Source: Parasteatoda tepidariorum (lineage: Eukaryota). Taken from it: DNA of 54,628 nt. The stretch is taken from NCBI RefSeq assembly GCF_043381705.1, contig NC_092214.1:2558259-2612886 (forward strand). Direction: 5' to 3'. Positions within the stretch are counted from its first letter, which is position 1. Each line of letters opens with the position of its first letter. The notes beneath the pieces were generated by a model, which had not been told where the DNA came from, ran no database searches, and was given only the letters and a program-made list of their open reading frames with translations. This document shows positions 1,620-45,650 of this stretch, piece after piece. The position numbers were made by a program, and so were the translations under genes.

Positions 1620-4480
1620 AAAAACTTGAAAGATAGAGCAAAAACAGGAGAATGTTCGTTCACATCTTTCAGCAGATCAGGAATAATTCCTGTGGCTGTC
1701 TATGAGACGTCTATTCTTCCATAAATTATGGATCAAGTTACGCATATCTCATCCCCGTAAAAGCTGATGTTCGACTTTTAGACTTCTACTAAATCTTCCC
1801 TTAACGTCTAGTTTAGATCCACTGGATTATTTTGTGCTATGTGATTCATGAACCTTCATTAAAGTCTTCATTACCCCAAAGTGGCCTCCGGTTGAACTAC
1901 CATGCAGTTCTTTCAAAATTTCCACAATTCTTGATTTGAGAAAGACAAGCTACAATTTCAAGCTCTGTCAATCATCAGATTCCAATTTTCTGTATAACCT
2001 GCCATTTCTAGTATAGATTGAATCCCATAGAGCCCAATACTGTTTAGTAGCAAGATTGTAGATGGAAATGTCCTGCCAACTTTGGCTTATATTCAACTAT
2101 TCTTTAATTTCAAGAATAGGTCTTACATCAGGATCTCACATTTGGGCTTGTTTTTCTCTTCATCCCGCGATGGATCAGGCTTCGATGTCATTGAAACTGT
2201 AACTTGGTGTAACACAGAATTTGCTGGCTGAACTTTCTTCTCTATTCTGAAGCTATATTGGCATCTTACATTGCAAGTCTTCCTCGATAATGCGGTAGCA
2301 TTTCCATGTGCAGTACCCTTGCAATGACGAATCTTGAAATCATATTCCTGGAGTCTTATCCCCCTGGCTAGCTAACTTTATGGGTTCTTAAAATTTAAAG
2401 AGGTGTGATCAGTCCGGAGTAAAAATTACAATGAGGATATCATCCAAGTAAAGAAGACATGATTTATTAGAGAGTCCTCTTAGCCCAGTTTCAATAAGGC
2501 GCTCAAACGTTGCAAGTGTGTTACTAAAGCCGAATGGTATCACCTGAACTGCCTAAGTCCTGTGGTGAAGGTAATCTTTTCACTGTCATTAATATGTATC
2601 TCAGCCTGCCAGTAACCACTTTTAATTTCAAAATTGAGAACTATTTATTCCAAGCTAGAGTGTCTAATGTGTCAAGAGTGTCTAATGTGAAAATCCTGAT
2701 TAGAGGGTAGCTATTTTTTTTGTTATTTCATTCAGTCAATGTTAGTCGACACAAAATGGGGTTGAGCCATCTTTCTTCTTGACTAGAACAATAGGAAAAT
2801 GCACAAGGACTCATTAATGATTGAATGACTTCATTCTCTTTCATTTCTTTTAGAAGTTTAGCTACCTCTTCCTGTTTAATAAATGGTTATCTCCAAGGAT
2901 GTTGTCTGATGGGAGTATGATTTCCAGTATCAATTTGGTGCTGCATTATTTTTGTACGATCAACATCTTCTGATGTTCTGAAAAAAAGATTTTTAAATTC
3001 AGTTAATAATTTTTCTTCAGCTTTCTTTTGTCCATCATTTAACTTTGCACTCTGTATAAATTCACTCATAAAAGTTCCAGAAGACTCGTTTAATGCTGTT
3101 TGATAGTTTCTGTTAATACAGGTCACTAGAGCTCAAGTTGTCAACACTTCATCTTCCTTTAGAACTTTCGCTTTATCTCTCACATTAGCAAGTCTCACAG
3201 GTATTCATTTCTGGAAAGGTCTACGAGCACAGAAGCCACAAGTACTCCTTTGAAGTTGTTGTCTATATCTGGATATTCTATTAGACCATATCAGAAATTA
3301 TCACAGAAAGGATTCCCAAAACCATTATCTCAGTTCTTGGTGGAATTGTTCTTAACTGTTCTAAATTGTTCTTAACTTTCATTTAATAGGCCTGTTTAAT
3401 CTCTGGATTTCACTTTTTAAACACGTTGATATCTTCTATACTTGAGTGCAATTTGTTGTTTTTGAAGTCCAGTTTAAAATTATTTCCTCGTAAGAAGTCT
3501 AATCCGAGAATGAACTCGTCACTGATATCTGCCACGAATGCTGCATGATAACTCGTATCTCCAAATGAAATCTTGAAGTTGATTTTTCCATGAGCTTTGA
3601 TTTTGTCACCAATCACATTCTCTAATGCAATGCTGGTCGACATCCAACTTAATTTTTCATCTAGTTTCTGAGCCAAATCTAAGGATGGTGGTGTTGGCTT
3701 CTGTATCAATTATCATAGTGCATTGATGTGCCCCATAATGTCCACTACTGCTGCCACTCAATGAAGAAATCAGCAATACTTTGATTTGGGGTTTCATAAC
3801 TTCTAGTCACCTCAGCCCCGAAGATGGCCACAAATTAGTTTTACTGCTGCAGTGAAGTATGACTTTCACCATCCTTAAGTATGAGCAATTTTTACGTACA
3901 TGGCCATCATTTCCACATGTTCAACATTTTCTTTCTTTATTTTTGTTCGTCTTGCTCTCTCTCAAACTCCAAAGCTCTCACAGAAAACTTCAATCATTTT
4001 CTTTAGACCAGCGTTTGAATCCGTGACTGATACTGCTCTGATAGAGTGGCAGACCTTCTATGAGGTTTGCTGAGCTGCCTTAATCTTGTGTGCAAAGACA
4101 AGAACTGGTCCCATAACCTTAACTTCAGCAAGTCTTAAGTGCCTTTTGCGTTTCTGCACATCCTGTACACAGTCTATGAAGTAGTGGAGAGCTAAACCTT
4201 GATGTACCTTAGGAGGGCGATTCGAAAAATCTAGATGCAATATTCTTTGAATATCAACGGCCAATTGTTCCAGACCTTTAACTGCTCATCGATAGCGGGA
4301 CTTCAAATGCAGGTGACTGCATTCTCGGGAGCATTATTCCCCAAAGAGCAGCTCCAATAAACTTGAAAGGGCTTCAAAATCATTGTGTTGTTGAGCAAGT
4401 AAGTGTTCCCGAGATGTCCATTGTATCTCCTCTTAAAGCAGCCCCAAGAAAAAAGGCCTTGGCAGTTGAACTCTATCTGC
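1620..4480 (-). mobile_element. Degenerate Ty3/gypsy-type LTR-retrotransposon internal region (gag-protease-RT-RNaseH-integrase) with frameshifts and stops.
   Basis: Minus-strand translations give a protease FILGLDFLRGNNFKLDF (3410-3709) and an RT start HQIDTGNHTPIRQHPWR (2887-3126). They also give an RT core ...LPSPQDLGSSR.YHSALVTHLQRLSALL...FTWMISSL (about 2450-2620) and an RNaseH end LQEYDFKIRHCKGTAHGNA.ALSR. An integrase zinc-finger motif LHGSSTGGHFGV.KTL falls at about 1850-1900. Several stops and frameshifts mark it as a pseudogene. LTRs were not identified. Confidence 0.7.
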
Positions 4481-4967: not shown

Positions 4968-5565
4968 GTTCTTTTAGCTATAAGAAATTGACAGGGAGGG
5001 CAAATTATGCTGATTGGAAGTTTGCCATGAAGATGCACCTAATCAAAAGAGATTTATGAGCTTATGTAGAAGGAAAAAAGGAAGATGCAAATTTAGATGC
5101 CAAAGCTTTGTCATACATAGTTGAAGGGGTTAGTGAAACAATTTTTAATGATTTGAGTCTTATCTAGTGGCAAAGAAGCCTGGGAAGTATTATCAAAAAT
5201 TTATGATGATAAAGGAATAACTAGAAAAGTGTCTGTAATTAAAGAATTGATTAACACTAAGTATACTGATTGTAGAAATATGTGGGACTACCTTCGTAAA
5301 GTGATTTCAGCATATCTGCAATTAAAATCAACAGGAGTTAAAGCAGATGATGAACTAATAGCTGGAATAATTTTAACAAACTTATGTGATAGATTTGAAC
5401 CTCTTACCTTGGCTTTGAAAAATTGTGGGGAAGAGATAACTATCGATAACGTTAAAACTAGATTAATGACTGAGGATGATAAACCTAATTCTGATGGAAA
5501 TTTTGATCAAGCTTACCTTAATGAGAAGTTTAAAGGCAAGAATAAGTTTAACCCATTTTAGGCAG
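4968..5565 (+). mobile_element. Ty1/copia-type gag fragment (DUF4219/UBN2-like) with internal stops.
   Basis: Translation gives KKLTGRANYADWKFAMKMHLIKRDL.AYVEGKK...AKALSYIVEGVSETIFNDLSLI.WQRSLGSIIKNL. The 110-aa ORF MSVIKELINTKYTDCRNMWDYLRKVISAYLQLKSTGVKADDELIAGIILTNL... follows. Both have the copia gag N-terminal pattern. Confidence 0.6.
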
Positions 5566-5949: not shown

Positions 5950-6703
5950 TTATAATGTACTTTCACCAGTTGGATTCTTTTTGGATTCAGATTTTAATAG
6001 AACAATAGCTATATAAGATCTTAAGTCTATAAGTGATATTTTTGAGCTAGTTGAAATTCTATGTAACTTCCATGAATTTATTATACTGCTATCAATGATG
6101 TTTGTAAATAATGTCCACCTTTTCTTACCTTGAATCTTGATGAGATAATTAGCTATGGCATTGTCATGTAGGTCAACACCTAACATATGCTGATCGTAAT
6201 CCAAAAGAACGTTGAATTGTGAAATCACAACTTCTTTCTTTGTGACTATATCGTTTGGCATTTACAAGGGGCAAAATGGTAGCGTTATCAGTAACAATTG
6301 TTATCACAGCATTGTCATTTCATTTCAATGCACATGTTTCCAACGGTTCCAACGATTTTGTATTCAACACATTGTTTTTTTTCTTCATATTTTTGGAGTC
6401 ATCCTATATACAACCAGTAATACGATTTTTGCCAGCTGTGCCAGGTGCAAAAAAACCCTTTTCTTTCAAAATTTCGAAAAAAAACTAGGAGGAGAAAAAG
6501 CTATCGAAATAAATTTTGTGCATCTCATTTCTTAAAGCAACGCTAAGTAACTGCAGAACAACGCTTCTTCCTAATGGTATATTTTGTTGATCACTCTTAG
6601 CCTCAGGACAATAAAACTGAAACTCTAAATATACAATAAAACTCTGAAACCTTGCAAAAGAGTGAGTTTTCACATTTTGCTTGTTTCTCATGCATTCGGC
6701 CAA
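5950..6703 (-). mobile_element. piggyBac-type transposase fragment (DDE domain remnants), frameshifted.
   Basis: Minus-strand ORFs give LGRSVVLQLLSVALRNEMHKIYFDSFFSS (compare piggyBac LGE.VVL.L...Y.DNFyTS) and FAPGTAGKNRITG (compare YATGTIRPNRKG). The C-terminal block LLDYDQHMLGVDLHDNAIANYLIKIQGKKRWTLFTNIIDSSIINSW matches the piggyBac YNKHMGGVD...KKWW...F...D.A..NS motif. Confidence 0.65.
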
Positions 6704-9179: not shown

Positions 9180-10180
9180 TTTAGTCATCTCAAGTCCAGT
9201 CTCTCGCGATTTTAATACCTATCATCGATTTTCGTATTTACCTGATTTAAAAGTTTCGCAATGTGATTCTTATTTACGTTATTTAAACATCGTACATTAA
9301 GATTCTTAGCTACGAGATTTAAAAATCCAATATCGCTTTTTGTATTTATGCATTTTTAAAATCGCGATTTTATTGTCAAACATCGATTTTCGTATTTACC
9401 TGATTTAAAAGTTGAACGTTACGAGTGTTATTCAGGCGATTTAAATATCGTACATTGTGATTCTTATTTACGAGATATAAAAATCCAATAAAACGATTAG
9501 TATTTACGCGCTTTTAGAACCCTATGTAGCGATTCATATTCAAGCGAGCTTAAAATCCTATGACGTGATTCGTTTTTGCGGTTGTAATATCAAACATTGA
9601 TTTTCGTATTTATACGAAATCCAATCCAATATAGCGATTTGTATTTACGCGCTTTTAAAACCCTATGTAGCGATTCATATTCACGCGAGCTTAAAATCCT
9701 ATGTCGTGATTCGTTTTTGCAGTTGTAATATCAAACATCGATTTTCGTATTTATGCAAAATCCAATCCAATATAGCAATTTGTATTTACGCGCTTTAAAA
9801 ACCCTATGTAGCGATTCGTATTCATGCGAGCTTAAAATTCTATGTCGTGATATGTTTTTGTGGTTGTAATATCAAACATCGATTTTCGCACTTAACGTGG
9901 TTTAAAAATTAGACATTGTGATTTATATTTGTGCTATTTGAAAATTATGCATCGTGATTCGTGTTTGCGTGCTCTAAAAATTACGCATCATGATTTGGAT
10001 TTCTGCATTTTTTAAAATTCGGTATAGAGTTTCATATTCACGTGATTTGAAAGCCTCATATCAGGACTCATATTCTCTCAATTTAAAATTAAAGCATGTG
10101 ATTAATATTTATATATTCATACAGTTTTAAAATTAATCATCAGGATTTATAATCGCGTGGTTTACAAGTTTAAAGATCTC
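9180..10180. repeat. Tandem satellite-like array with a unit of about 125 bp and a roughly 42-bp sub-periodicity. The core of three well-conserved units lies at 9510-9885 and the flanks are degenerate.
   Basis: The array reiterates blocks such as gcgattcatattcacgcgagcttaaaatcctatgtcgtgattcgtttttgcagttgtaatatcaaacatcgattttcgtatttatgcaaaatccaatccaatatagcaatttgtatttacgcgcttt. Confidence 0.7.
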
Positions 10181-11254: not shown

Positions 11255-11429
11255 AATTCATAAAGCATCTTCTATTATTTTATCACGTTATCAAGAAGCT
11301 ATAAACAAGGCTTTAGAAATATCTTCTCTACATAATTTATGCCCAATACCTGGAAAGACATTGATTTTGTGTGATACAATATTTCTTAATCAAGAAAAAG
11401 TTAAGAAGCAAAGAAAAGTTCAATCTAAA
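11255..11429 (+). CDS. TROVE-domain protein, coding exon D (vWA-like beta strand). Translation: (K)IHKASSIILSRYQEAINKALEISSLHNLCPIPGKTLILCDTIFLNQEKVKKQRKVQSK.
   Basis: Acceptor aaatttcag ends at 11254 and a canonical GTAAGT donor starts at 11430, phase 0. GKTLILCDT aligns with the GKRFLLAVDVS strand of the Ro60 vWA domain, but the DxSxS MIDAS motif is absent. Confidence 0.55.
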
Positions 11430-12331: not shown

Positions 12332-12740
12332 CAGTGAACAAAAATTAAATGTATCACACTGAATTACTTTTGATCTAATAATTGGATCTTCACATTCTAG
12401 GACAATCTTAATGGTTCAAGGCGCTGTCCACAAATATGCTAATTAAATAGTGTGGACAATATTTTAAGTTACAAAATCAAACACAGAATACTTTCTCTGA
12501 GTAAGCATACTTTTATTTCCATGAATGTGGATTCCTGACTCCCAAAATATAGGGGGTAGCCGCAATCTGGGAAATATGGTCATAATAGTTTGTTTTGGAA
12601 AGCAGTTTAAAGTTTGGACCCCTTAATGCTAGTTTTACTTTTTCCATATTTTCCCATTGCTTTGGAAGTTATCGATGCTATTCAGAAAAACTTAGCTCAG
12701 AATTATTTGAATGCTTATGCTAAGATAATTCTATGTAAAA
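12332..12740 (+). repeat. Copy 1 of a dispersed roughly 300-480 bp repeat family with a Tc1-like terminus (CAGTGC.A-rich..GGACCACCCTGAATAACTTTTGAT...TTGGACCCCTTAATG...).
   Basis: It shares long blocks with the copies at 40297, 42295 and 45145. Examples are ctgaattacttttgatctaat, cccaaaatatagggggtagccgcaatctgggaaatatggtc and agtttggaccccttaatg. It is followed at 12750-12960 by a second partial direct copy. Confidence 0.6.
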
Positions 12741-28165: not shown

Positions 28166-31100
28166 CTGAAATAAAGATGCATGAGTTAGTTAAAACAGAA
28201 ACTAAACAAATATTATAATGCTAAATTCAAAATAAGTTATAAAATATATTCCTAAAATAAGAAAGTAGAAGAATATATTTGTGAATGAAAGTGCTACATA
28301 ATATTGCTGTGTATATTTGTATCTGGTCACAGGATGTGTTAGATACTCCTATGTGCTCTCTGGATACTATTGCATTTTTTCTGTTTATTAGTTAAACTAT
28401 GAGTAAACAAAATAAAAAATAAGAGAATTTTTATTAAAACTTTAGGAAAATTTAAATTACACCTTGCATCCAAAATATCTCTCCCATCAATACGTTGAAA
28501 TTTTTCCTCTTACTCTTTTTTTTTCATTAAAAGCTCTTCTAATATTTTTTAAATTTTCCATATTTTAAAAATAATGAAAAAATTTTCAGTGAAAATTATC
28601 ATTAGTTTTAATTGACTATTTACAGTTATATATTCAATTATAAAAAAAAATTTACAAATTGAACAAAAAAATAACCTTCTGCAAAATAAAATACAAAATA
28701 AATAAATGCACATACAGAATATATTTTAAATTCATGTATATATACAGTTAGACTTCAATGTAATGAACTTCCATTTTGTGAATTTCTCTATTTTGCAATT
28801 TTTTTAGAGGAGCTAAGAACATTTTGGAAATTTCTTCGTAAAAAAACTTCCAAATAACAAAGTGAATTTTCTATTTAACGAACTTTTCTTTAAGATCCAC
28901 TTTCCCTATTTTCCAAAACATTTCAAACTTGTTAGTGCATTTTATGGGGGAAATGACTTTGAATTGATTTTGGCAGCCGCTTTGAGAGAAAGAAGTAAAT
29001 TGCCTTTCCCTTTTTGTTTGCATTTCATACTAGAATCCAAGCCAAAAATCAAGCCAAAAAAGCTGCAACCACAAAAACATTAACTGAATTGGATAGTTTG
29101 GATGGTGTGAAAAATAAAAACAATAATACAGCAATAAATTGTGAGGAAGACGAAGAAGATGGAAATGATGAAGAAATCACCAAACCTTTCTATGATAAAA
29201 TGCTAAAATCATTTGAAGCAATTCAGTAGTAGATAATAATTTACAAGATGAAGGTTATCAGTTGCTGTTTCAATTATGTCTAGTGTTTATGAATTTGAAA
29301 CCTGTTTTGTGTTGTTTAAAGATTTTAAATGGTGATTTTCTATTTAACGAATTTTTATATTACAAGCTTTTTATCGGGATTTAGCGACTTCGTTAAATGA
29401 GGCCGAACTGTATATTCTGATTAAAAATATATAAAACACAATAAAAATTTCAAAATTTGAGGATTTTTAAAATTAAAATAAATTAAATTACATTTTAAGT
29501 CAAAAATGCTGCTTTTAATAATAATTATTTAAATTTTTATGTTTGTTTATTATCGAAATTAAAAATATACTTCTCTTCAAAAAAGCACTATATTTGAAAG
29601 ATAATTACCAACATCATTTTTTTTAACGTACTAATTTCTAAAGCCACTTTGGAAAATATACTGTAAGACTCCTATGTATACTCATATTTGTGTGAAAAAT
29701 CTAGAAAATTTACCTAGTTAACCTAAAGAAAACTGAATTATTAAGAACTTATAAACATTATTATAAAGAATTAATTACAATAAAAAAATTGAAATATTCC
29801 AAGACCTTACATTAATTAAATTAATCAAACTTTTTCCATTACATTTATTTAAGTCAAAATTAGGAAAATTAAATTAAAGCATATTCAATCTGAATTTGTT
29901 TCTAAAGGGATTACAATTTTCTATTAGAACAAATTTGTCACACCACTCTGAACAAAGTTATCCTCAGCCTCAGAAGTTATCTTTTACTGAAAGAGCATTT
30001 TTTTTCCAACAGTGTCTGAAAAGTTGGAAGGTGTGGTGTATCACCGTGGTTTTTAAACTATCATTTACTATCCAACCATGCGAGTGTGAACACGGAGCAC
30101 ATATAATTTAATTTAGACACTTTTTGTGGGTGCAAGCTTAGTAGTTAGCCTGTCTAAGGGGACGAGAGTGTGTCAGATTTAGGAAACAATGCTTAAGTTT
30201 AGAAATAGCATATCTTACATAATTTTCCATATCACAATTTTCTTGGTTATATAACTTTAATTTTTCATTTCATAATTTTCATTTTAATCAATTTTAATTT
30301 TTCCTTTTTGTTCCTGGGAAACAATGAAACCCAATTCAACTTTCATTCACACTAGAGGGGGTCCAACAAGGTATTAAAATCTCTATTCTTTTGTGTCTTT
30401 TCCTGTAATAAATGATCATTTTGCTTTTATTCCTCAATTACTTACTTAAAACAATGTTTGTTTTCATTCTGACAACTCCTTCTCGGTGCACAAATTTTTA
30501 TGGCAATGTGTGTATTTTAAGATTGATCTGTTCCAGACTAATGTTGCCATATTTAGTTGTTAAGCTTAAAGATATATGAAATGGTCTATATAACCCTGGG
30601 TATTCCAGCTATCATTTCATGTGATAATTTGGTCCCAAAGTATTGCTTAAAAAATTTTTCTCGTATTTTTTGAAGATATTTTCTTTGGGTTCTCTTAAAT
30701 TTTTGACTGTTTATATTTTATAATGAGTGTTAATATACTGTAAGATTTATTTATACATAATATGATATGACAAAAGAAAGAAACCATCTAAGTATTTTCA
30801 AACGAGGAGACTTTTATTTGTTCCTTACAGAAAATTTGGCCACCTATCCAATATTTAGTTTTCCAGCACCAGTCTCGTGGATGTCATTAAAAGTTTATGA
30901 CTTAACTGCTGTTTAATAAAAATCCATTTTGCTAAAATTATTATTCTTTTAATGTTATACCCAGCCTCAGCCAATTAGCCCTGTGCTATCTTGCTGTCCA
31001 ATAAAGGTGTGTAAAATCTGAAGGAGAAGTATTCTCATTGTCAATATCTTTCAATTTAGTGCACACAAAGAGATGTTTGTGTTTCATAAATTTTGTATGG

Positions 31101-31313
31101 AAAAATTACTTTTTTCCAACTTTTAAGACTAATAGTAATACAAATATGTACAATAGATATAAAGGTTGACTTACCAAGTTAAGCATAAAGCTGTTTGAAA
31201 AAAAGGGGGGGGGTTCATTTTAATGTTAAATAGATATTATATCTTCTATTTCCATTATTATATCTATAATTTTATATCTAAGCAAGAAATATTACTTTAG
31301 TTTGTATACTTAC

Positions 31314-33908
31314 TAATTTTGGTAAATAATCAGTTTCTCCTGAACTTGTAATTGTTAGCTGATTATTAGCTAGGCTGAGGTATCTGAGGTTCTGAAAGCT
31401 TTTAAAATTACTAAAATTTAAGGATTGTATGAGATTTCCAGCTAGATCAAGAAGTTGTAAACTGTTCTTTAAAGTGAGCAAAGATTCTTGAGGAAATGCT
31501 TCTAAAAAGTTGTAAGATAAGTCTAATTGTTCTATATTTGTCTTAATAAATATATTTTCTGCCAATTCTTCCATACTGTTGTGTGAAGCTGAAAATATTC
31601 TCAGTCTTGATTGCTCATTAAATAAGTTTTCAGGCAATACTGTGATATTGTTAAATGATAAATTTAAAATTTGTAATGATGTAATCCCTTTAAATTCGTT
31701 TTCATCTACGGAATCTATCTTGTTGTTAGAAATAATCAACATTTGTAATTGAGCCATGTTAGCAAAAGCTGATACTGATAAATCTTGTATTAAATTATTA
31801 CTCAAATCTAGACGTATAACTGACTGGCGAATAGGATCAAAATAATTGTTGTCTATGTAAGATATGTTGTTATAGCTGAAATTTATATTCTTAATATTGC
31901 TTGATGTATGAATTACAGAATAATTTCCAGTTAAATTCTGAATGTTGTTATTATTGACATCGACTTTTAATGCAGAAAGCCTACCTACTTGATGAAAAGC
32001 TTCTAAATTGAAACTTAATAGTTTGTTATATGCTAAATTAATATATTGAACGTTTGGAAGATTTTGAAAGGCTTCGTTTTCAATATTCTCTATTAAATTA
32101 CCTTGTAGTTGAATATCAATAATTGAATCCAAATCTAAGAAAGCAGATTTTCTTATACTTTTTATATGATTATCATTCATCTGTAAATAAATTAATTTTC
32201 GTAAATTTCGGATTGTATATGAATTCAATGTACTAATTCTGTTAAAAGCTATTTTCAAATGTTCCACGTCTGGATTGTTAATATCATTAATGAAATTTGG
32301 ATGCAGATCTAGTAATTTATTGTAATTTAGATTCAAATATTTCAAATTCTGAAATGAAATAAAGGATTCATATGGTAGTTGTATTAAACCATTGTCACTC
32401 AAATCTAAATATTCCAATTTATTAAGGATGTTAAATATCTTAAAAGGAAACATAGTCAATTTAAATGCCTTGTGTAAGTTTAATTTTATCAAAGAGTGTC
32501 TGTTATCTTTAAAAGTAGAGTTTTCAATTTTTGTTATGCTGTTATAAGACAAATCAAGTTCTTTTAAACTACTCAATTTATTAAAAGCTCCATTTTCTAT
32601 CACTTTAATGAAACTTTTTGTTATAGATAGCTTTTCAATAGATGATCCAAAATTTCGTAAGTAGTCTTTATCTAGTAGAGATTGCTTCTTGTTAAATAAA
32701 TACTCACGCAAATTGAATAAATTCAAAATAACTTCATTATCAAGGCTTGTCATTTTAGGACCTCTTAAATCTAAGTATTTTAGAGTATTGCTGTATCCTT
32801 TTATGCTGGAAAAATTTATTTCTTTTATTGTATTACCTGCAAGTGATAGTCTCACTAGTTTTGTGAATGGTAAATCTGGAAATTCACCCAGATTGTTAAA
32901 ACTTAAGTCTACTACCTGCATTGAATGAGCAACACTATAAAATGCATTAGGTGTAATTAGGGATATTTTACAATAAGGCATGTATATCTCTGTTACATTG
33001 GTTATTAAAAAAGTATCATTAACTGTTTCTAATGGATTTCCTTTTAAAAATAATCGATTTATATGACTAAATAGTCTAAAACTCTGTGGTGTCAGCTCAG
33101 TCAACAGATTATTTTCTAAATGCAATTCCTCTAAATTAATTCGATTTCTTGTTTCTCGGCCTTCAGATATTGTTGAAATCATGTTATCATTCAAATTTAC
33201 TGTTTTGATATTTTTTAAATTAGCCAGTGCATTCAATGGAATTTGCTGAAGTTGATTTCCCATCAAATTCAAATGCTTCAAGTTATTTAGTCCACTTTGA
33301 AAAGTAATATCATCAATAGTTAGAATTGAGTTATAAGCCAAATTCAAAACCTCAAGTGAAATCATGTTTCTGAATGAATCTGTTTGAATATGCATTAGTG
33401 CATTATTTGTTAAATCCAATAATTTTAGCGTTTTTCCAATGCTTCGAAAATCGTCATTATACAGAATTGAAATGTGATTTTCACTTAAAATTAAACTACT
33501 TAATTTTTCTGAATTTAGTATTGCTTCTTTTGGTATCCTAAATAATTGGTTTTGGCTTAAATCTAACACTGATAAAGTTTTTTCAAGACCTGCCAAAGCA
33601 TTTGAAGGCAAATCAGATAGAAGGTTGCTGTTTATTTGAAGTTTCCACAATCCTGTACCATTCAAACTGTAATCTTCAAGATATTGCAATTTATTATTTT
33701 TCAGACTCATGATATAAATTGCAAATTTATTGAGATGAGGTGGTATAGTCATAAACGGAATATTTTCACAACTAACGGATCCTAAATCGGGACCTCCACT
33801 TGAGCAGGTACATAAAGAGTTAAATGTACATGGTCTGTGTTGTTCTTTTAACCTAGAATCGACGTTAGTGAGGAACAATAAAAAGCATACTTTCTCCAAA
33901 ACTTTCAT
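31314..33908 (-). CDS. Chaoptin-like extracellular leucine-rich-repeat protein, first coding exon (865 codons). It encodes a signal peptide, an LRR N-terminal motif and about 30 LRRs.
   Basis: The ATG at 33908 is immediately preceded by an in-frame TAG and a good acceptor (ttttctcttatag). The product starts MKVLEKVCFLLFLTNV, a signal peptide, followed by CTFNSLCTCS...VSCENIPFMTIP, an LRR N-terminal motif. It then runs through uninterrupted L..L.L..N LRRs. A GTAAGT donor at 31313-31308 follows ...DYLPKL, and the ORF track continues 11 codons past this donor. Confidence 0.75.
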
Positions 33909-34346
33909 CTATAAGAGAAAAATATATTTTAGAAAATGTGTTTGTGTATATACAATAAATAAAGTATAAAATTATTACTGGGAAATTCTATATATTTTTT
34001 AGTGAGTGTGCGATGCAATTTGTTTTTTAACAAAACATTAAATTTGCTATTTTCTTTCCTGAAGCTATGAAATCTTCAATATTTTATTAAGTGTTGTCTT
34101 TACAATCTCTAGATTTTCTAGTGTGCATAAGTGTATATTTCTATGCACATGTATGTTTCTCTCTATTTCTAATTACTATAGTCGAATAGTCTCTGTGAAA
34201 TCAAATTTTAGATCTACAACTGTTTTTTTTTAAAATTTGCTAACTCAGAAACTATTGCTCTCAAATTTTTTTATCTAGTCAGCATTTTTTTTTTTACTTC
34301 ATTGTAAAGAATGTAAATACAAATTTTGTGTTTGCATTTTTTAAAA

Positions 34347-34690
34347 GTCCCGCTGTGAACAGATCGTTAAGACACGGTTCCTAGCAAATCACCGAAGTCA
34401 AGCATCACTGGCTACGGTCAGTGTGCGGGTGGGTGACCACTTGGATCAGTCTGCGTAGGGACCGAGGGTGTGCGGTATTGGTCCTCGTTAAACTGTGCTA
34501 CCGTAAAGTGCTCGACTTCGCTCGCAGGTCGTCAGGGTACCGAAGCGGGGGTGCCATCCCATCTGCAGAGGATCAAAATTGTGATGGCATGTCTTCGGAT
34601 CATCCTCAGGGATGTTTCCCAGACCGTCGCCAATAGCCCATTGTGCAGCTCTAGTGCGATGTAAATTAACAGCAACAACAACATTTTTTA
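34347..34690 (+). mobile_element. 5S-rRNA-derived SINE-like element (or a highly diverged 5S pseudogene): a 5S-like head of about 120 nt, a GC-rich body and an A-rich tail.
   Basis: GGTTCCTAGCAAATCACCGAAGTCAAGCATCACTGGCT...GGGTGGGTGACCACTTGGATCAGTCTGCG aligns with the canonical 5S rRNA internal region. That region reads GGTTCTCGTCCGATCACCGAAATTAAGCAGCGTCGGGC...GGGTGACCGCCTGGGAACACCGCG. It spans the pol III box A / internal element / box C area. There is a roughly 10-nt insertion near the 5' end and about 200 nt of non-5S GC-rich sequence follows. It is therefore not a functional 5S gene. The three overlapping ORFs in the ORF track here are artefacts of the local GC richness. Confidence 0.5.
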
Positions 34691-34849
34691 AAATGTAAAA
34701 ATTTGTAAACTTTTTCAATTACAAAATATAATCATCAAAGAAATATAAATAATTATTAAATATAATTTTTCGCAAGGAATTATCTTTCAAAGATTTTATA
34801 ATTGTATGCAATATTTTTTCAAGTGGCTTAAAAAGTTCTCAATATTTGG

Positions 34850-35000
34850 CAAAACTTGCAAAAAGTTAACATTAAAAATTAAAACTTTCATCTGCTCTCC
34901 TGACCAAACTTTTGGAAACTTATTTCCCAGATTGTGGCAACCCCTCGCCCCATATTTTGAAGGTCAACAGTTCGAATTCTTCAAAAAAAAAATTGTGTTT
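34850..35000 (-). repeat. Short degenerate inverted fragment of the same family.
   Basis: tatttcccagattgtggcaacccctcgccccatattttg is the reverse complement of the family block caaaatatagggggtagccgcaatctgggaaata. Confidence 0.35.
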
Positions 35001-36520: not shown

Positions 36521-36901
36521 TTTCCTAACTAAATTTAAAGTTTTTTTTTATAAATGTACTTAAAATAAAAAATAAAATATTTTTCAGTTAAAAAAAAATT
36601 TAAATAGTCTCCAGTGGGAATAAGTCGCGGATATTTCATTTACAAGACAAGTGTCCTAATCACTATGTTACACATCCACCTTCAATACAATTTTTTTTTA
36701 TTCCAATATTAAATGAACTTAAACTTTTTGTGTTCATATTTTACCCTAGTGGCCACAGTTGGTAGCACTAATTGTTGAAGTTCTAACTTGGTTCAACTCT
36801 AATAAGAATTTTTATAGATTCATATGCAGGGCCCGATTAAAAGAGTCTTACGTCCTGGGCAAAATACTATTTAAGGGAACCCAACATTTCCCCTGGCTTT
36901 T

Positions 36902-37567
36902 TTGCTTTTATTCATTTTAACAAAATGTTTCCTCTGCTATGGATGGGTGGAGAAATTCAAGATCCGAATTGGCCTAGAAACTCGTACCATATCTGGTAAA
37001 AATACAAGCGTGAACGAAAGGACTGTAAGGGAATGGAAAGAAAAATTTAAATCTTTAATTAAGGAATACAAACCAAAGGATATTTTTAATTGTGATGAAA
37101 CTGGTTTGTTTTTCAGGATGATGCCTAAAAAGACAATGGCATTTAAGGGAGAACTCTGCCACGGTGGAAGAAACAGTAAAGAAAGATTAACCGTTTTATT
37201 ATGTTGTAATGCAAATGCATCAGAAAATACCGATACCGATCTTAGTAATAACGAATGGAAAGTTGTATCCCATGGACTTGTTTCCTTTAATGAATTTATT
37301 GTCTTTGATGATAATCTATTAACAACGGAATTAAGAGACATTGATAACGATGAGAACGTGTCGGATGATACTGACGAGGATGATAAAGTTCCTCCAAATC
37401 ACACAGCAGTACTAGAAGCTTTAGACACTATTCGTGACTATTTACAATTCAATTCTGCTTCTGAAACTCCCTTATCCCATTTATATGAGCTGGAAAAAAC
37501 TGATTTTGAAATACGTCGGCAAAAACAAATACAAACATGTATTAAGGATTATTTTGTAAGAAAATAA
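36902..37567 (+). mobile_element. Tigger/pogo-type (CENP-B-like DDE) transposase-derived ORF, internally deleted but open for 221 aa.
   Basis: The ORF contains ...ISGKNTSVNERTVREWKEKFKSLIKEYKPKDIFNCDETGLFFRMMPKKTMAFKGELCHGGRNSKERLTVLLCCNANA. That is the pogo DDE_1 start, with DETGLF and the ER.Tvl.c.NA block. It then jumps to an acidic C-terminal region (DDTDEDDKVPPNHTAVLEALDTIRDYLQ...) typical of Tigger C-termini. The HTH N-terminus and most of the catalytic core are missing. Confidence 0.6.
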
Positions 37568-37989: not shown

Positions 37990-38870
37990 GGGGGGGGGGA
38001 CAGAGGGCCCCTTTAAAATTTAAGTGATGGGGCTAACAATGTGTTTTACCCCACCTGAAATTTAGACACTTGCAAAAATAAAGCAAAGTAAAATTTGTAA
38101 TTAAAAAAAAATTTTTTTTCACTTTTGAAGCTATTTTTCAAATCGAAAACTTTATATTCCTCTGAAATTTAAGCGGAGGGTTGAATAATGTGCTTTGCCC
38201 TTTCTAATATTTTGACATTTGTCAAGACACAAATTCAAATAAAATTGGTAATTAAAGAGAAAAAAAAGCTATTCTTTCTCAACCTTGAAACTTCACACCA
38301 AATAGGAAACTTTTGTTTGTTCTGAAATTAAATTAAATGGGTGAATAATGTGCCTTTTGACATTTGGAAAAGTAAAGTGAAAGTGAAAAAATATTTTATT
38401 TCCAATTTTCACTTTATTTTCCGGGTAGAAACTTTCTTTTCTTCTGAAATTGTAATGAGGGGACGAACAAAGGGCTTCGCCCCTTCAAAAATTTCAGCGC
38501 GTTCCTCGAAAATTATGTCAAGAAAAATTGGTAATTTAAAAAAATCAACTTAGAGGCTATTTTCGATGTCTAAAACTTTATTATCTTCTGATATTAGAGT
38601 GAGGAGGAAAAAATGTGCTTTGCCCCTACTGAAATTTAGACATTTGCTAAAATAAATTCTAGTAAAATTGATAAATTTAAAAAGAAAAACTATTTTTTTT
38701 TTCAGCATTGAAGCTATTTTCCAAATAGAAAACTTTCTTTTCCTCTAAAATAAAAGTGAGGAGACGAAAAATCTGCTTCTCTTCTTCTGAAATTTAGACA
38801 TTAACAGAATAAAATCAAGTAAAGTTGATAATTTTAGAAAAAAAAAGTTTTTTTTTTAAACGATGTTATG
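37990..38870. repeat. Tandem repeat of about 6 units of roughly 145 bp.
   Basis: The consensus contains ...aatgtgctttgcccc.tctgaaatttagacatttgc.aaaataaa...agtaaaattg.taatt.aaaaa.aaaa..ctattttccaaat.gaaaactttcttttcctctgaaat.aagtgagg... Confidence 0.7.
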
Positions 38871-40296: not shown

Positions 40297-40780
40297 CAGA
40301 AAAAGGACCACCCTGAATAACTTTTGATTTAATGATTAGATCTGCACGTTCTAGGACTCGTGGGTGTGACCTCACTAAGTAATTGGTGCTGATGATATTT
40401 TATTTTATGTTACGTAATCAGACACAAAAACATACTTTCGCTGAATAAACATACCTTTTTTTTCAACGGATTCGATTTTCTAGGCACCATAATATAGTGG
40501 GTAACCGTAATCGGGAAAATATGGTCTCGATAGTTTGCTCGGAAGAGCGATCCAATGTTTGAACCCCCAAATGTTAATTTTATTTCCTGCGGATTTTGCC
40601 ATAGCTCGAGAGTTTTTTAAGGGAATTGAAAAATTAGTGCACGTAATTATAAAATTCGTTTATCCGAAGGTCATTCCATGCAAAAATAACTTTTAGAGAA
40701 TATTTATTATTTTTTATTCAATAATAGTCGAGAAAATTTTGAATTTCCAGGTATACAGTTTTTTTTTTTGTATCATTTTA
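40297..40780 (+). repeat. Copy of the dispersed Tc1-like repeat family (the longest copy).
   Basis: It starts CAGTGCTCAGAAAAAGGACCACCCTGAATAACTTTTGATTTAATGATTAGATCTGCACGTTCTAGGAC. It then carries ...accataatatagtgggtaaccgtaatcgggaaaatatggtc and ...tttgaacccccaaatgttaatttt. Its tail is shared with the 45145 copy. Confidence 0.6.
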
Positions 40781-42294: not shown

Positions 42295-42715
42295 CTGTGA
42301 GCAAAATAAAAAGTTAACGCTCAGAATTACTTTTGATCTAATCTAATGATAGTATTTTCACATACTTAATCGTAATAACACGAAGTTATGTTAATTAATT
42401 ATATATTATATAATAACTTAATTATATGTTAATTTATTACTGACATTATTTAAAGTTACGAAATCAGATACAAAAAAGCACTTTCTCAAAATAAGCATTT
42501 TTTAAATTTTTTCGACAGATTTGGTATTTTAACCCTTGAAGTATGGGGGGGGGCACAATCTGAAAATTATTGTACTAATAATTTATACAGGAGAGCGATT
42601 AAAATTTTGGACCCCTTCATGTTAATTTCACGTTTTGCGTATTTCATTATATCTCGAGAAATTGATAAGTGAATCAAAAAGGTTTTTGTTCACATTTATA
42701 AAATTCTTGAAATGA
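42295..42715 (+). repeat. Copy of the same family, left arm of a near-perfect palindrome.
   Basis: It contains aattacttttgatctaat and ggggggggcacaatctgaaaattattgtact. It ends ...ttttggaccccttcatgttaatttcacgttttgcgtatttcattatatctcgagaaattgataag. Confidence 0.6.
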
Positions 42716-45144: not shown

Positions 45145-45650
45145 AAAAATAAATAAAAAAAAAGGAACACCCTGATTAACTTTTGTTCTAATGATCAGAT
45201 TTTCACGTACTGGAACTCAAACTTAATGGTTCACGTGGGTGTCCTTAAATATGCTAATTAATTAGTGCAGACGATATATTAAGTTACTAAATCAGGCTTA
45301 AAATCGTACTTTTTCTGAATAAGTATAACTTTTATTCGACGGATTTTTATTCTTGATCCGCAAAATATAGGAGGTAGCTGCAGTCCGAATAACTTGGTCA
45401 GGAGAGTGGGCAAAAGTTTGGACCCCTTGATGTTAATTTTGCATATTTCGCCCCATCTCAACAACATTTAAAGCGATTTGGAAAATTTGTGTTTACAATT
45501 ATAGAATTCGTTTATTCAACGATAATTCAATGACACAAACAATAATTACTTATTAATTTTTAGTATTTAAATTAATAGTAGTAGAAAATTTTTTGAATTG
45601 TAAGGTATACAAGTTTTTACAGAATTTTAAAGAATGTATTTTTATAAGCC
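45145..45650 (+). repeat. Copy of the same family. It is preceded by TA (atgTA|CAGTGCGAAAAAATAAAT...).
   Basis: It carries GGAACACCCTGATTAACTTTTGTTCTAATGATCAGATTTTCACGTACTGGAAC. It then has ...ccgcaaaatataggaggtagctgcagtccgaataacttggtc and ...aagtttggaccccttgatgttaattttgc. Its tail is shared with the 40297 copy. Confidence 0.6.

Follow-up and report, generated by a model that had tools for sequence, protein, structure and literature searches.

A probable 5S rRNA-headed SINE in the common house spider shares its 3′ module with marine metagenome repeats

Introduction

The SINE3 class of short interspersed elements (SINEs), whose heads derive from 5S ribosomal RNA (rRNA), was reportedly set out by Kapitonov and Jurka in 2003. 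Here we describe a 337-bp element in a 54,628-nucleotide stretch of the genome of the common house spider, Parasteatoda tepidariorum (contig NC_092214.1, positions 2,558,259 to 2,612,886; the whole stretch is called the window below), which is very probably one retroposed copy of a composite SINE of this class that depends on a long interspersed element (LINE) for its mobility. Like zebrafish SINE3 and AmnSINE1, the spider element is short and non-coding, is laid out as head, body and tail, and carries a 5S-derived head with box A, an intermediate element (IE) and box C. Its host is a spider, and its body and tail appear to be unrelated to theirs.

Invertebrate SINEs with 5S heads have been published from insects, including SINE3-1_TC of Tribolium, HaSE3 and further lepidopteran families (PxSE4/5, CsSE2, LaSE2 and SINE3-1_LyPhl), and from the scaphopod mollusc Antalis, which carries the Ante element (PMC3272025, PMC10886601, PMC5804259). 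A preliminary description of the spider DNA, made from the letters alone, had held that an arthropod family would be unusual, a view that these Tribolium and Lepidoptera examples make outdated. All of these families resemble the spider element in being 5S-headed, but their hosts are insects and a mollusc, and a 2024 review names the hosts of 5S SINEs as 'reptiles, insects, fish, and mammals' (PMC10946416). We found no literature report of 5S SINEs in spiders or other chelicerates; Repbase and Dfam, which may catalogue the family, lay outside the search. The element would be a new example of the SINE3 class in a lineage where the class seems to be undescribed. Common class membership does not imply common descent, because SINE3-class elements are thought to have arisen independently and repeatedly (PMC10886601).

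Two pairs of elements offer architectural parallels. In HaSE3 and HaSE1 of Helicoverpa armigera, and in CoeSINE5 and CoeSINE4 of the coelacanth, a 5S-headed SINE and a tRNA-headed one have the same body and 3′ tail, and this common part derives from a LINE of the RTE clade and ends in short tandem repeats (PMC3272025, PMC5786205). SINE bodies made of fragments of RTE untranslated regions (UTRs) show high conservation between phyla (PMC5786205, PMC3272025). The 3′ 130 nucleotides (nt) of the spider element are likewise common to repeats without a 5S head. Unlike in those pairs, the other-headed relatives come from marine metagenomes rather than from the same genome, and their heads are not recognised as tRNA. 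Cassandra and Ajax also place a 5S-derived promoter for RNA polymerase III (pol III) in a non-autonomous retroelement, but both are long terminal repeat (LTR) elements that carry a primer-binding site and a polypurine tract and give duplications of 5 bp, whereas the spider element bears the hallmarks of non-LTR retroposition.

Results

A composite element bracketed by a target-site duplication

The element lies at 34347-34683 on the plus strand and has a GC content of 53%, compared with 28.5% for the window as a whole. In 200-nt windows the GC content is 46.5-56.5% across 34300-34699 and falls to 20-35% on either side, which bears out the GC-rich island in an AT-rich background that had been noted previously. 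An exact 12-nt direct repeat, CATTTTTTAAAA, brackets the entire 337-bp composite, and because it marks both boundaries we take 34347-34683 as the element proper. The preliminary description had extended the element to 34690; positions 34684-34690 belong instead to the flanking target-site duplication. Direct repeats of at least 10 nt and at least 12 nt were found at 0.2% and 0.12%, respectively, of 20,000 random positions in the window when the same positional slack was allowed as at the element. The search for target-site duplications that had been proposed as a check therefore yielded an exact repeat of 10-12 nt, the shorter count applying if the final CA is assigned to the tail. CpG dinucleotides are not depleted in the element (observed/expected ratio 0.88, against 0.73 in the window). 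Together with the intact duplication, this suggests an insertion that is fairly recent and lineage-specific.

From 5′ to 3′ the element consists of a 5S-derived head, a family-specific linker, a 3′ module of about 130 nt and a short-repeat tail (Table 1). The module is followed by TTAAA and then by short tandem repeats. The head-body-tail arrangement recognised earlier thus stands, although the plain A-rich tail does not: the tail reads as TAAATTAACAG(CAA)n-like. The open reading frames (ORFs) within the element are spurious; it is short (under about 600 bp) and non-coding.

The head derives from 5S rRNA but is not a 5S gene

The full Rfam 5S model (RF00001, positions 1-120) aligned to 34351-34461 on the plus strand with 19.1 bits in a permissive search of 34250-34800 (551 nt). 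The expect value (E) was 0.25 when corrected for all 4227 Rfam families and, by our own division of that value, about 6e-5 for the single prior hypothesis '5S'. The gathering score of this family is 38 bits, and a scan of the whole window returned no Rfam family at its gathering score. Helix I is kept in the alignment (GTCCC...GGGAC), and relative to the model the head has a 4-nt deletion in the helix II region and small indels rather than the insertion near the 5′ end that had been described. Given a score of 19.1 bits against 38, the non-canonical helix positions and the helix II deletion, we regard the head as derived from 5S rRNA and not as a 5S gene. The covariance-model check suggested earlier thus gave a full-length alignment at a score under the curated threshold and without the intact fold of a 5S gene.

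Global alignment gave 64-69% identity between the head and the 5S rRNAs of fly, frog and human, with z scores of 5.6, 3.2 and 3.5, respectively, against 1000 dinucleotide shuffles. The adjacent, non-5S body scored about zero in the same comparison. These results uphold the relationship to 5S rRNA proposed for the first 120 nt or so. The internal control region is the best-kept stretch of the head, and within it box C is the best conserved part in the covariance-model alignment. When matches were counted against frog, fly and human 5S, the parts resembling box A, the IE and box C were all present, as in other SINE3 heads. The second of the two 5S blocks quoted in the preliminary description, GGGTGACCACTTGG, occurs exactly; the first reads AATCACCGAAGTCAAGCA, with A and not G at its first base.

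The same composite recurs in an unrelated contig

Further copies were sought by translating chance ORFs inside the element and searching protein space. This recovered one metagenome contig of 754 bp (L001; ENA ERZ28583989, DRAU22-1_SAMN24223994_METAG scaffold_29287), the sole contig outside the window with the 5S-headed family; its flanks are unrelated to the window, and the DNA in the sample presumably comes in part from P. tepidariorum or a related spider. It holds two copies. Copy A has a full-length head, linker and module, starts (A)GTCCC, is 71% identical overall to the window copy (about 70% in the head) and ends in a (CAAT)n tail, with the imperfect flanking repeat TTTA(C)AACTTT. Copy B is 5′-truncated: it starts inside the linker, at the counterpart of window position 34503, and over 171 nt its identity is 89%. 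It has a (CAAT)n tail of its own, and no target-site duplication was evident around it. Because the 5S model does not recognise the head of copy A, the window copy has the better-preserved head.

The linker is common to both of these copies and is absent from the marine relatives described below, except for a short stretch at its 3′ end in one of them (L008). In all, three copies of the family were found in two unrelated sequences, in addition to marine copies of the module, and duplications flank two of the three (exact over 12 nt in the window, imperfect for copy A). The earlier proposal of a 5S-derived SINE with head, body and tail is borne out by the duplication and by the recurrence of head, linker and body in an unrelated contig; the variable flanks expected of such a family are seen there too, beside a 5′-truncated copy and with differing tails. 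Taken as a whole, the recurrence of the composite, the truncation at the 5′ end, the individual duplications and the varying tails of short repeats are the signature of LINE-mediated retroposition.

Pattern searches added no copies. A degenerate pattern for a 33-nt core had no match in metagenome, viral or prokaryote-genome collections, and further pattern scans of viral collections were empty. Shorter patterns gave only matches put down to chance, one of 27 nt inside a GC-rich coding region of bacterial look (L002) and one of 20 nt in a metagenome-assembled genome of Oscillospiraceae (L011).

The 3′ module is shared with other-headed repeats in marine metagenomes

When the spurious protein encoded by the L001 contig was used as a query, an exhaustive HMMER search returned 110 cluster representatives of 46-209 amino acids, all of which match the same roughly 50 residues, an antisense translation of the 3′ body of the element. 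With a profile as the query, 38 clusters were returned, every one of them from short ENA metagenome contigs. All six related contigs that were fetched trace to two Tara Oceans marine samples. They carry SINE-like repeats that differ from the spider element in their 5′ part and share its 3′ 130 nt, and one contig of 1.2 kb contains three copies: one full-length, one heavily 5′-truncated and one inverted. These relatives were first described as tRNA-headed, a description that finds no support in Rfam (E up to 1) or ARAGORN; we therefore call their heads non-5S, with box A/B-like motifs recognised by eye.

In an alignment of 11 copies the module stays in register from GGGTACC... to ...CGACGTTAAA, beyond which the tails diverge into (CCAA)n or (CCCAA)n in marine copies and (CAAT)n or (CAA)n in spider-type copies. 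Against the seven marine copies that are full or nearly so, the identity of the window module is 77-84%, and one of them (L009) agrees with it at every base over a run of 45 nt. Its identity to the heavily truncated marine copy is 68%, and to the two L001 copies only 70-91%. A covariance model of the module (R1) scored 162 bits on the window copy, by construction, as that copy is part of the model.

The consensus fold obtained with RNAalifold comprises two elements, a hairpin and a 3′-terminal stem-loop (Table 1), which precede the short-repeat tails. Standard pairs make up 92% of sequence-pair cells across the fold, a share that drops to 32-47% if the 3′ partners are shifted by one to three columns. 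The covariation score of the fold was matched or exceeded by only 4 of 500 shuffles. In hairpin 1, 92.9% of cells are paired, with no two-sided change at any pair. The closing pair of the terminal stem-loop is G-C in eight copies, C-G in two and U-G in one, a compensatory change that separates the marine type (G-C) from the spider type (C-G or U-G).

In 113 kb of spider DNA the covariance model detected no additional clean copy. A weak, isolated match to the terminal stem-loop (30 of 37 nt, all five stem pairs kept) was observed at 28522-28566 on the minus strand of a Nephila pilipes locus (L003), with nhmmer E = 0.002 and, under the covariance model, 10.8 bits and E of about 0.04. It sits in a small GC-richer patch beside a TEP1-like coding exon and is possibly an old, heavily truncated relative. 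Signature strings of the module were absent from the HaSE supplementary alignments and from the relevant full texts.

Discussion

A probable route of retroposition

The standard SINE cycle gives the best-supported account of how copies of the element were made. In source copies, the 5S-derived head would provide, through its box A, IE and box C, an internal pol III promoter of type 1, with transcription starting at the first base, GTCCC.... The transcript would extend over the linker, 3′ module and short-repeat tail before ending at the first downstream T-run. Transcription by pol III generally terminates where four or more T follow one another, and in the window copy the T6 run within the 3′ duplicate would probably be the first terminator that the enzyme meets. 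The 3′ module, with its two stem-loops, TTAAA and short-repeat tail, would mimic the 3′ end of a partner LINE, probably of the stringent type (for example, of the RTE clade), and the reverse transcriptase of that LINE would carry out target-primed reverse transcription of the RNA at a nicked target. Such a process would give target-site duplications of 10-12 nt and, at times, 5′-truncated copies. The module is presumed to be the recognition element for the partner LINE, and its stem-loops fit a reverse-transcriptase recognition element of the kind found in stringent LINE/SINE pairs. By analogy alone, RTE may be considered the leading candidate clade: RTE UTR fragments form conserved SINE bodies, and CoeSINE4/5 and HaSE1/HaSE3 set precedents.

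We also considered, as a speculative extension, that the module is an unnamed and deeply conserved SINE/LINE domain, shared by the spider 5S SINE and by abundant other-headed repeats of marine plankton animals, and held nearly constant, whether because reverse transcriptase recognises it or because the LINE/SINE pair passed horizontally between marine and terrestrial hosts. This broader idea appears doubtful, though not far-fetched; the module may instead be the tail of a known LINE.

Weighing the alternatives

Several observations weigh against assigning the element to a mobile SINE3-class family. The 5S match lies under the curated Rfam threshold, with many helix positions non-canonical (about half of the model pairs), and the head of copy A scores no 5S match and has lost 28 nt over box C. 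Only three 5S-headed copies have been seen, two of them from one untraced metagenome sample. Blastn (word size 7), a profile hidden Markov model and a covariance model detected no second copy in the window, and 59 kb of DNA from two further spiders, Nephila pilipes and Stegodyphus dumicola, yielded no clean copy. The target-site duplication is a low-complexity AT sequence, the covariation supporting the module fold amounts effectively to one event, and no partner LINE, with this 3′ end, was found in the window or in any locus fetched. The single copy in the window and the sub-threshold 5S score would also suit a one-off decayed 5S retropseudogene (an orphon) that happens to lie beside unrelated GC-rich sequence, much as the preliminary description had offered a decayed 5S pseudogene fused to other sequence. 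That account is very improbable and in our view largely refuted: the order of head, linker and module recurs in copy A within completely different flanks, the 12-nt duplication spans the whole composite and not the 5S part alone, and the body is a multi-copy repeat elsewhere. The recurring composite, with its 5′ truncation, individual duplications and variable tails, rules out a fusion that happened once. Nor is the element at all likely to be a variant 5S rRNA gene that still functions, or some other pol III gene extended at its 3′ end, even though the full-length alignment keeps helix I and a T6 run lies downstream. The low score, the non-canonical pairs, the deletion in the helix II region and the lack of any Rfam match at the gathering threshold all stand against this, and because no T-run ends the 5S-like part, the transcript of such a gene would run on for a further 220 nt. 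We hold that idea to be next to impossible.

Miniature LTR retrotransposons with 5S promoters, such as Cassandra in plants and Ajax in nemerteans, do exist and keep mainly the box A/IE/box C region (PMC10886601), so the element might be thought a solo LTR of this kind. The insertion signature argues otherwise, as the duplication measures 10-12 nt and not 4-6 nt, where Ajax and Cassandra give 5 bp (PMC10886601). The ends read GTCCC...(CAA)n and not TG...CA; no second LTR, inverted partner, primer-binding site or polypurine tract lies nearby; and variable short tandem-repeat 3′ ends with 5′-truncated copies are hallmarks of target-primed reverse transcription. A solo LTR is accordingly a highly improbable explanation. 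A different kind of proposal concerns function rather than origin, namely that the copy has been exapted as a promoter, enhancer or pol III boundary for the chaoptin-like gene whose start codon is 439 bp away. The closeness of that start codon and the undepleted CpG content would be compatible with exaptation, and SINE bodies have been exapted elsewhere (PMC5786205). However, no copy was detected in the orthologous loci of N. pilipes and S. dumicola, including 10 kb upstream, the intact duplication points to a fairly recent and lineage-specific insertion, and the element is oriented away from the gene. We consider exaptation very unlikely, and the retroposed SINE3-class copy is best regarded as most likely a neutral passenger at this site.

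Significance of the family

If the assignment is right, the recorded host range of 5S rRNA-derived SINEs would extend to chelicerates, and the element fits the view that 5S heads have been recruited repeatedly onto existing LINE-derived 3′ modules. For annotation of the genome of the house spider, a developmental model, the element defines a repeat family that may surface as a weak 5S match in RNA scans. The family also generates spurious short 'proteins' in public catalogues, where at least 110 clusters (at 50% identity) of 46-209-residue antisense ORFs lie over the SINE 3′ module. Every such protein with a listed source comes from an ENA metagenome assembly (P0001 and P0126-P0252; loci L001 and L005-L010). 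The module shared with marine repeats offers a handle for finding the partner LINE and for separating constraint from horizontal transfer.

Genomic context of the window copy

The element lies upstream of a chaoptin-like gene on the minus strand, at a measured distance of 439 bp from its start codon at 33908, in agreement with the figure of about 440 bp given earlier for this leucine-rich repeat gene. An 876-residue ORF at 31278-33908 is 100% identical to UniParc UPI00077FB784 and clusters with XP_042896279.1, 'chaoptin-like [Parasteatoda tepidariorum]', of 1236 residues. The UniParc entry is identical to the raw ORF and looks like an outdated gene model: the current RefSeq model leaves the exon after residue 866, and the last 10 or so residues of the entry (...VIFLA; 31278-31310 on the minus strand) come from intron sequence read through beyond the splice donor. 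An acceptor-like ttttctcttatag precedes the start codon, and there is no coding exon upstream. A 5′-UTR intron containing the element is plausible, and the copy would lie between the start codon and a presumed upstream exon or promoter of the gene.

In N. pilipes (L003) and S. dumicola (L004), the chaoptin-like orthologue is annotated as nested antisense within a TEP1-like (TROVE and WD40) gene, an arrangement that is therefore conserved across spider families. Because plus-strand TEP1-like exons occur in the window, at 11277-11429 and 15967-16119, and because of the nesting in these two spiders, the element is probably located in an intron of the TEP1-like gene, in sense orientation to it. 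No copy was detected within 10 kb on either side of the gene in the two orthologous loci, which indicates that the chaoptin-like gene functions without the element in these species; their proteins are 63-66% identical, too diverged for an empty-site comparison. The preliminary suggestion that the element contributes promoter or pol III activity to the neighbouring gene finds no support in these observations or in its outward orientation, and the element has no bearing on how the chaoptin-like gene works.

Table 1 Coordinates in the window of the parts of the SINE copy and of the chaoptin-like coding exons
Feature	Position	Strand	Basis or remark
5′ target-site duplication copy	34335-34346		CATTTTTTAAAA, exact 12-nt repeat at both element boundaries
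5′ duplication, shorter count	34337-34346		10 nt, TTTTTTAAAA, if CA is assigned to the tail
5S rRNA-derived head	34347-34461	+	Begins GTCCC, like the second full-length copy; Rfam RF00001 alignment
Box A-like part of type 1 pol III internal control region	34396-34409	+	8-9 of 15 positions match 5S 50-64
IE-like segment	34412-34418	+	4-5 of 6 positions match 5S 67-72
Box C-like segment, CGGGTGGGTGACCACTTG	34426-34443	+	12-13 of 18 positions match 5S 80-97
Family-specific linker	34462-34534	+	Not 5S-like; alignments to both L001 copies
Conserved 3′ module	34535-34661	+	Common to repeats with other heads in marine metagenomes
Hairpin 1 of module, GTCTTCGGATCATCC-TCAG-GGATGTTTCCCAGAC	34591-34624	+	RNAalifold consensus
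3′-terminal stem-loop	34625-34661	+	CGTCGC (34625-34630) pairs with GCGATG (34656-34661); RNAalifold
Tail, TAAATTAACAG(CAA)n-like	34662-34683	+	Read from the sequence
3′ target-site duplication copy	34682-34693		Includes T6 run, 34684-34689
Chaoptin-like coding exon 1	33908-31311	-	tblastn of XP_042896279.1 (P0122), residues 1-866, 99.9% identity
Chaoptin-like coding exons 2 and 3	28165-27368, 24243-23926	-	tblastn, both 100%

Other repeats in the window

A separate interspersed repeat, unrelated to the SINE, occurs at 12552-12651, 40497-40596, 42545-42644 and 45383-45450, with 66-75% identity among copies, and an inverted copy lies at 34882-34944, about 200 bp downstream of the SINE. It is possibly a miniature inverted-repeat transposable element or another SINE. 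Mobile-element debris was noted at 5157-5558 (+), 5953-6261 (-), 2126-4285 (-) and 36875-37564 (+), and includes a copia-type gag fragment (PF14223, E = 6.5e-19) and a piggyBac-type transposase fragment (PF13843, E = 3.6e-6). The region at 2126-4285 (-) contains LTR-retroelement-like ORFs, one with a weak, below-cutoff match to an aspartic protease, and the ORF at 36875-37564 (+) appears pogo/Tigger-like by eye (IFNCDETGLFF), with no Pfam match. Tandem or near-tandem arrays are found at 9204-9904 (units of about 141-158 nt), 18105-18716 (about 210-225 nt) and 38035-38841 (about 160-570 nt).

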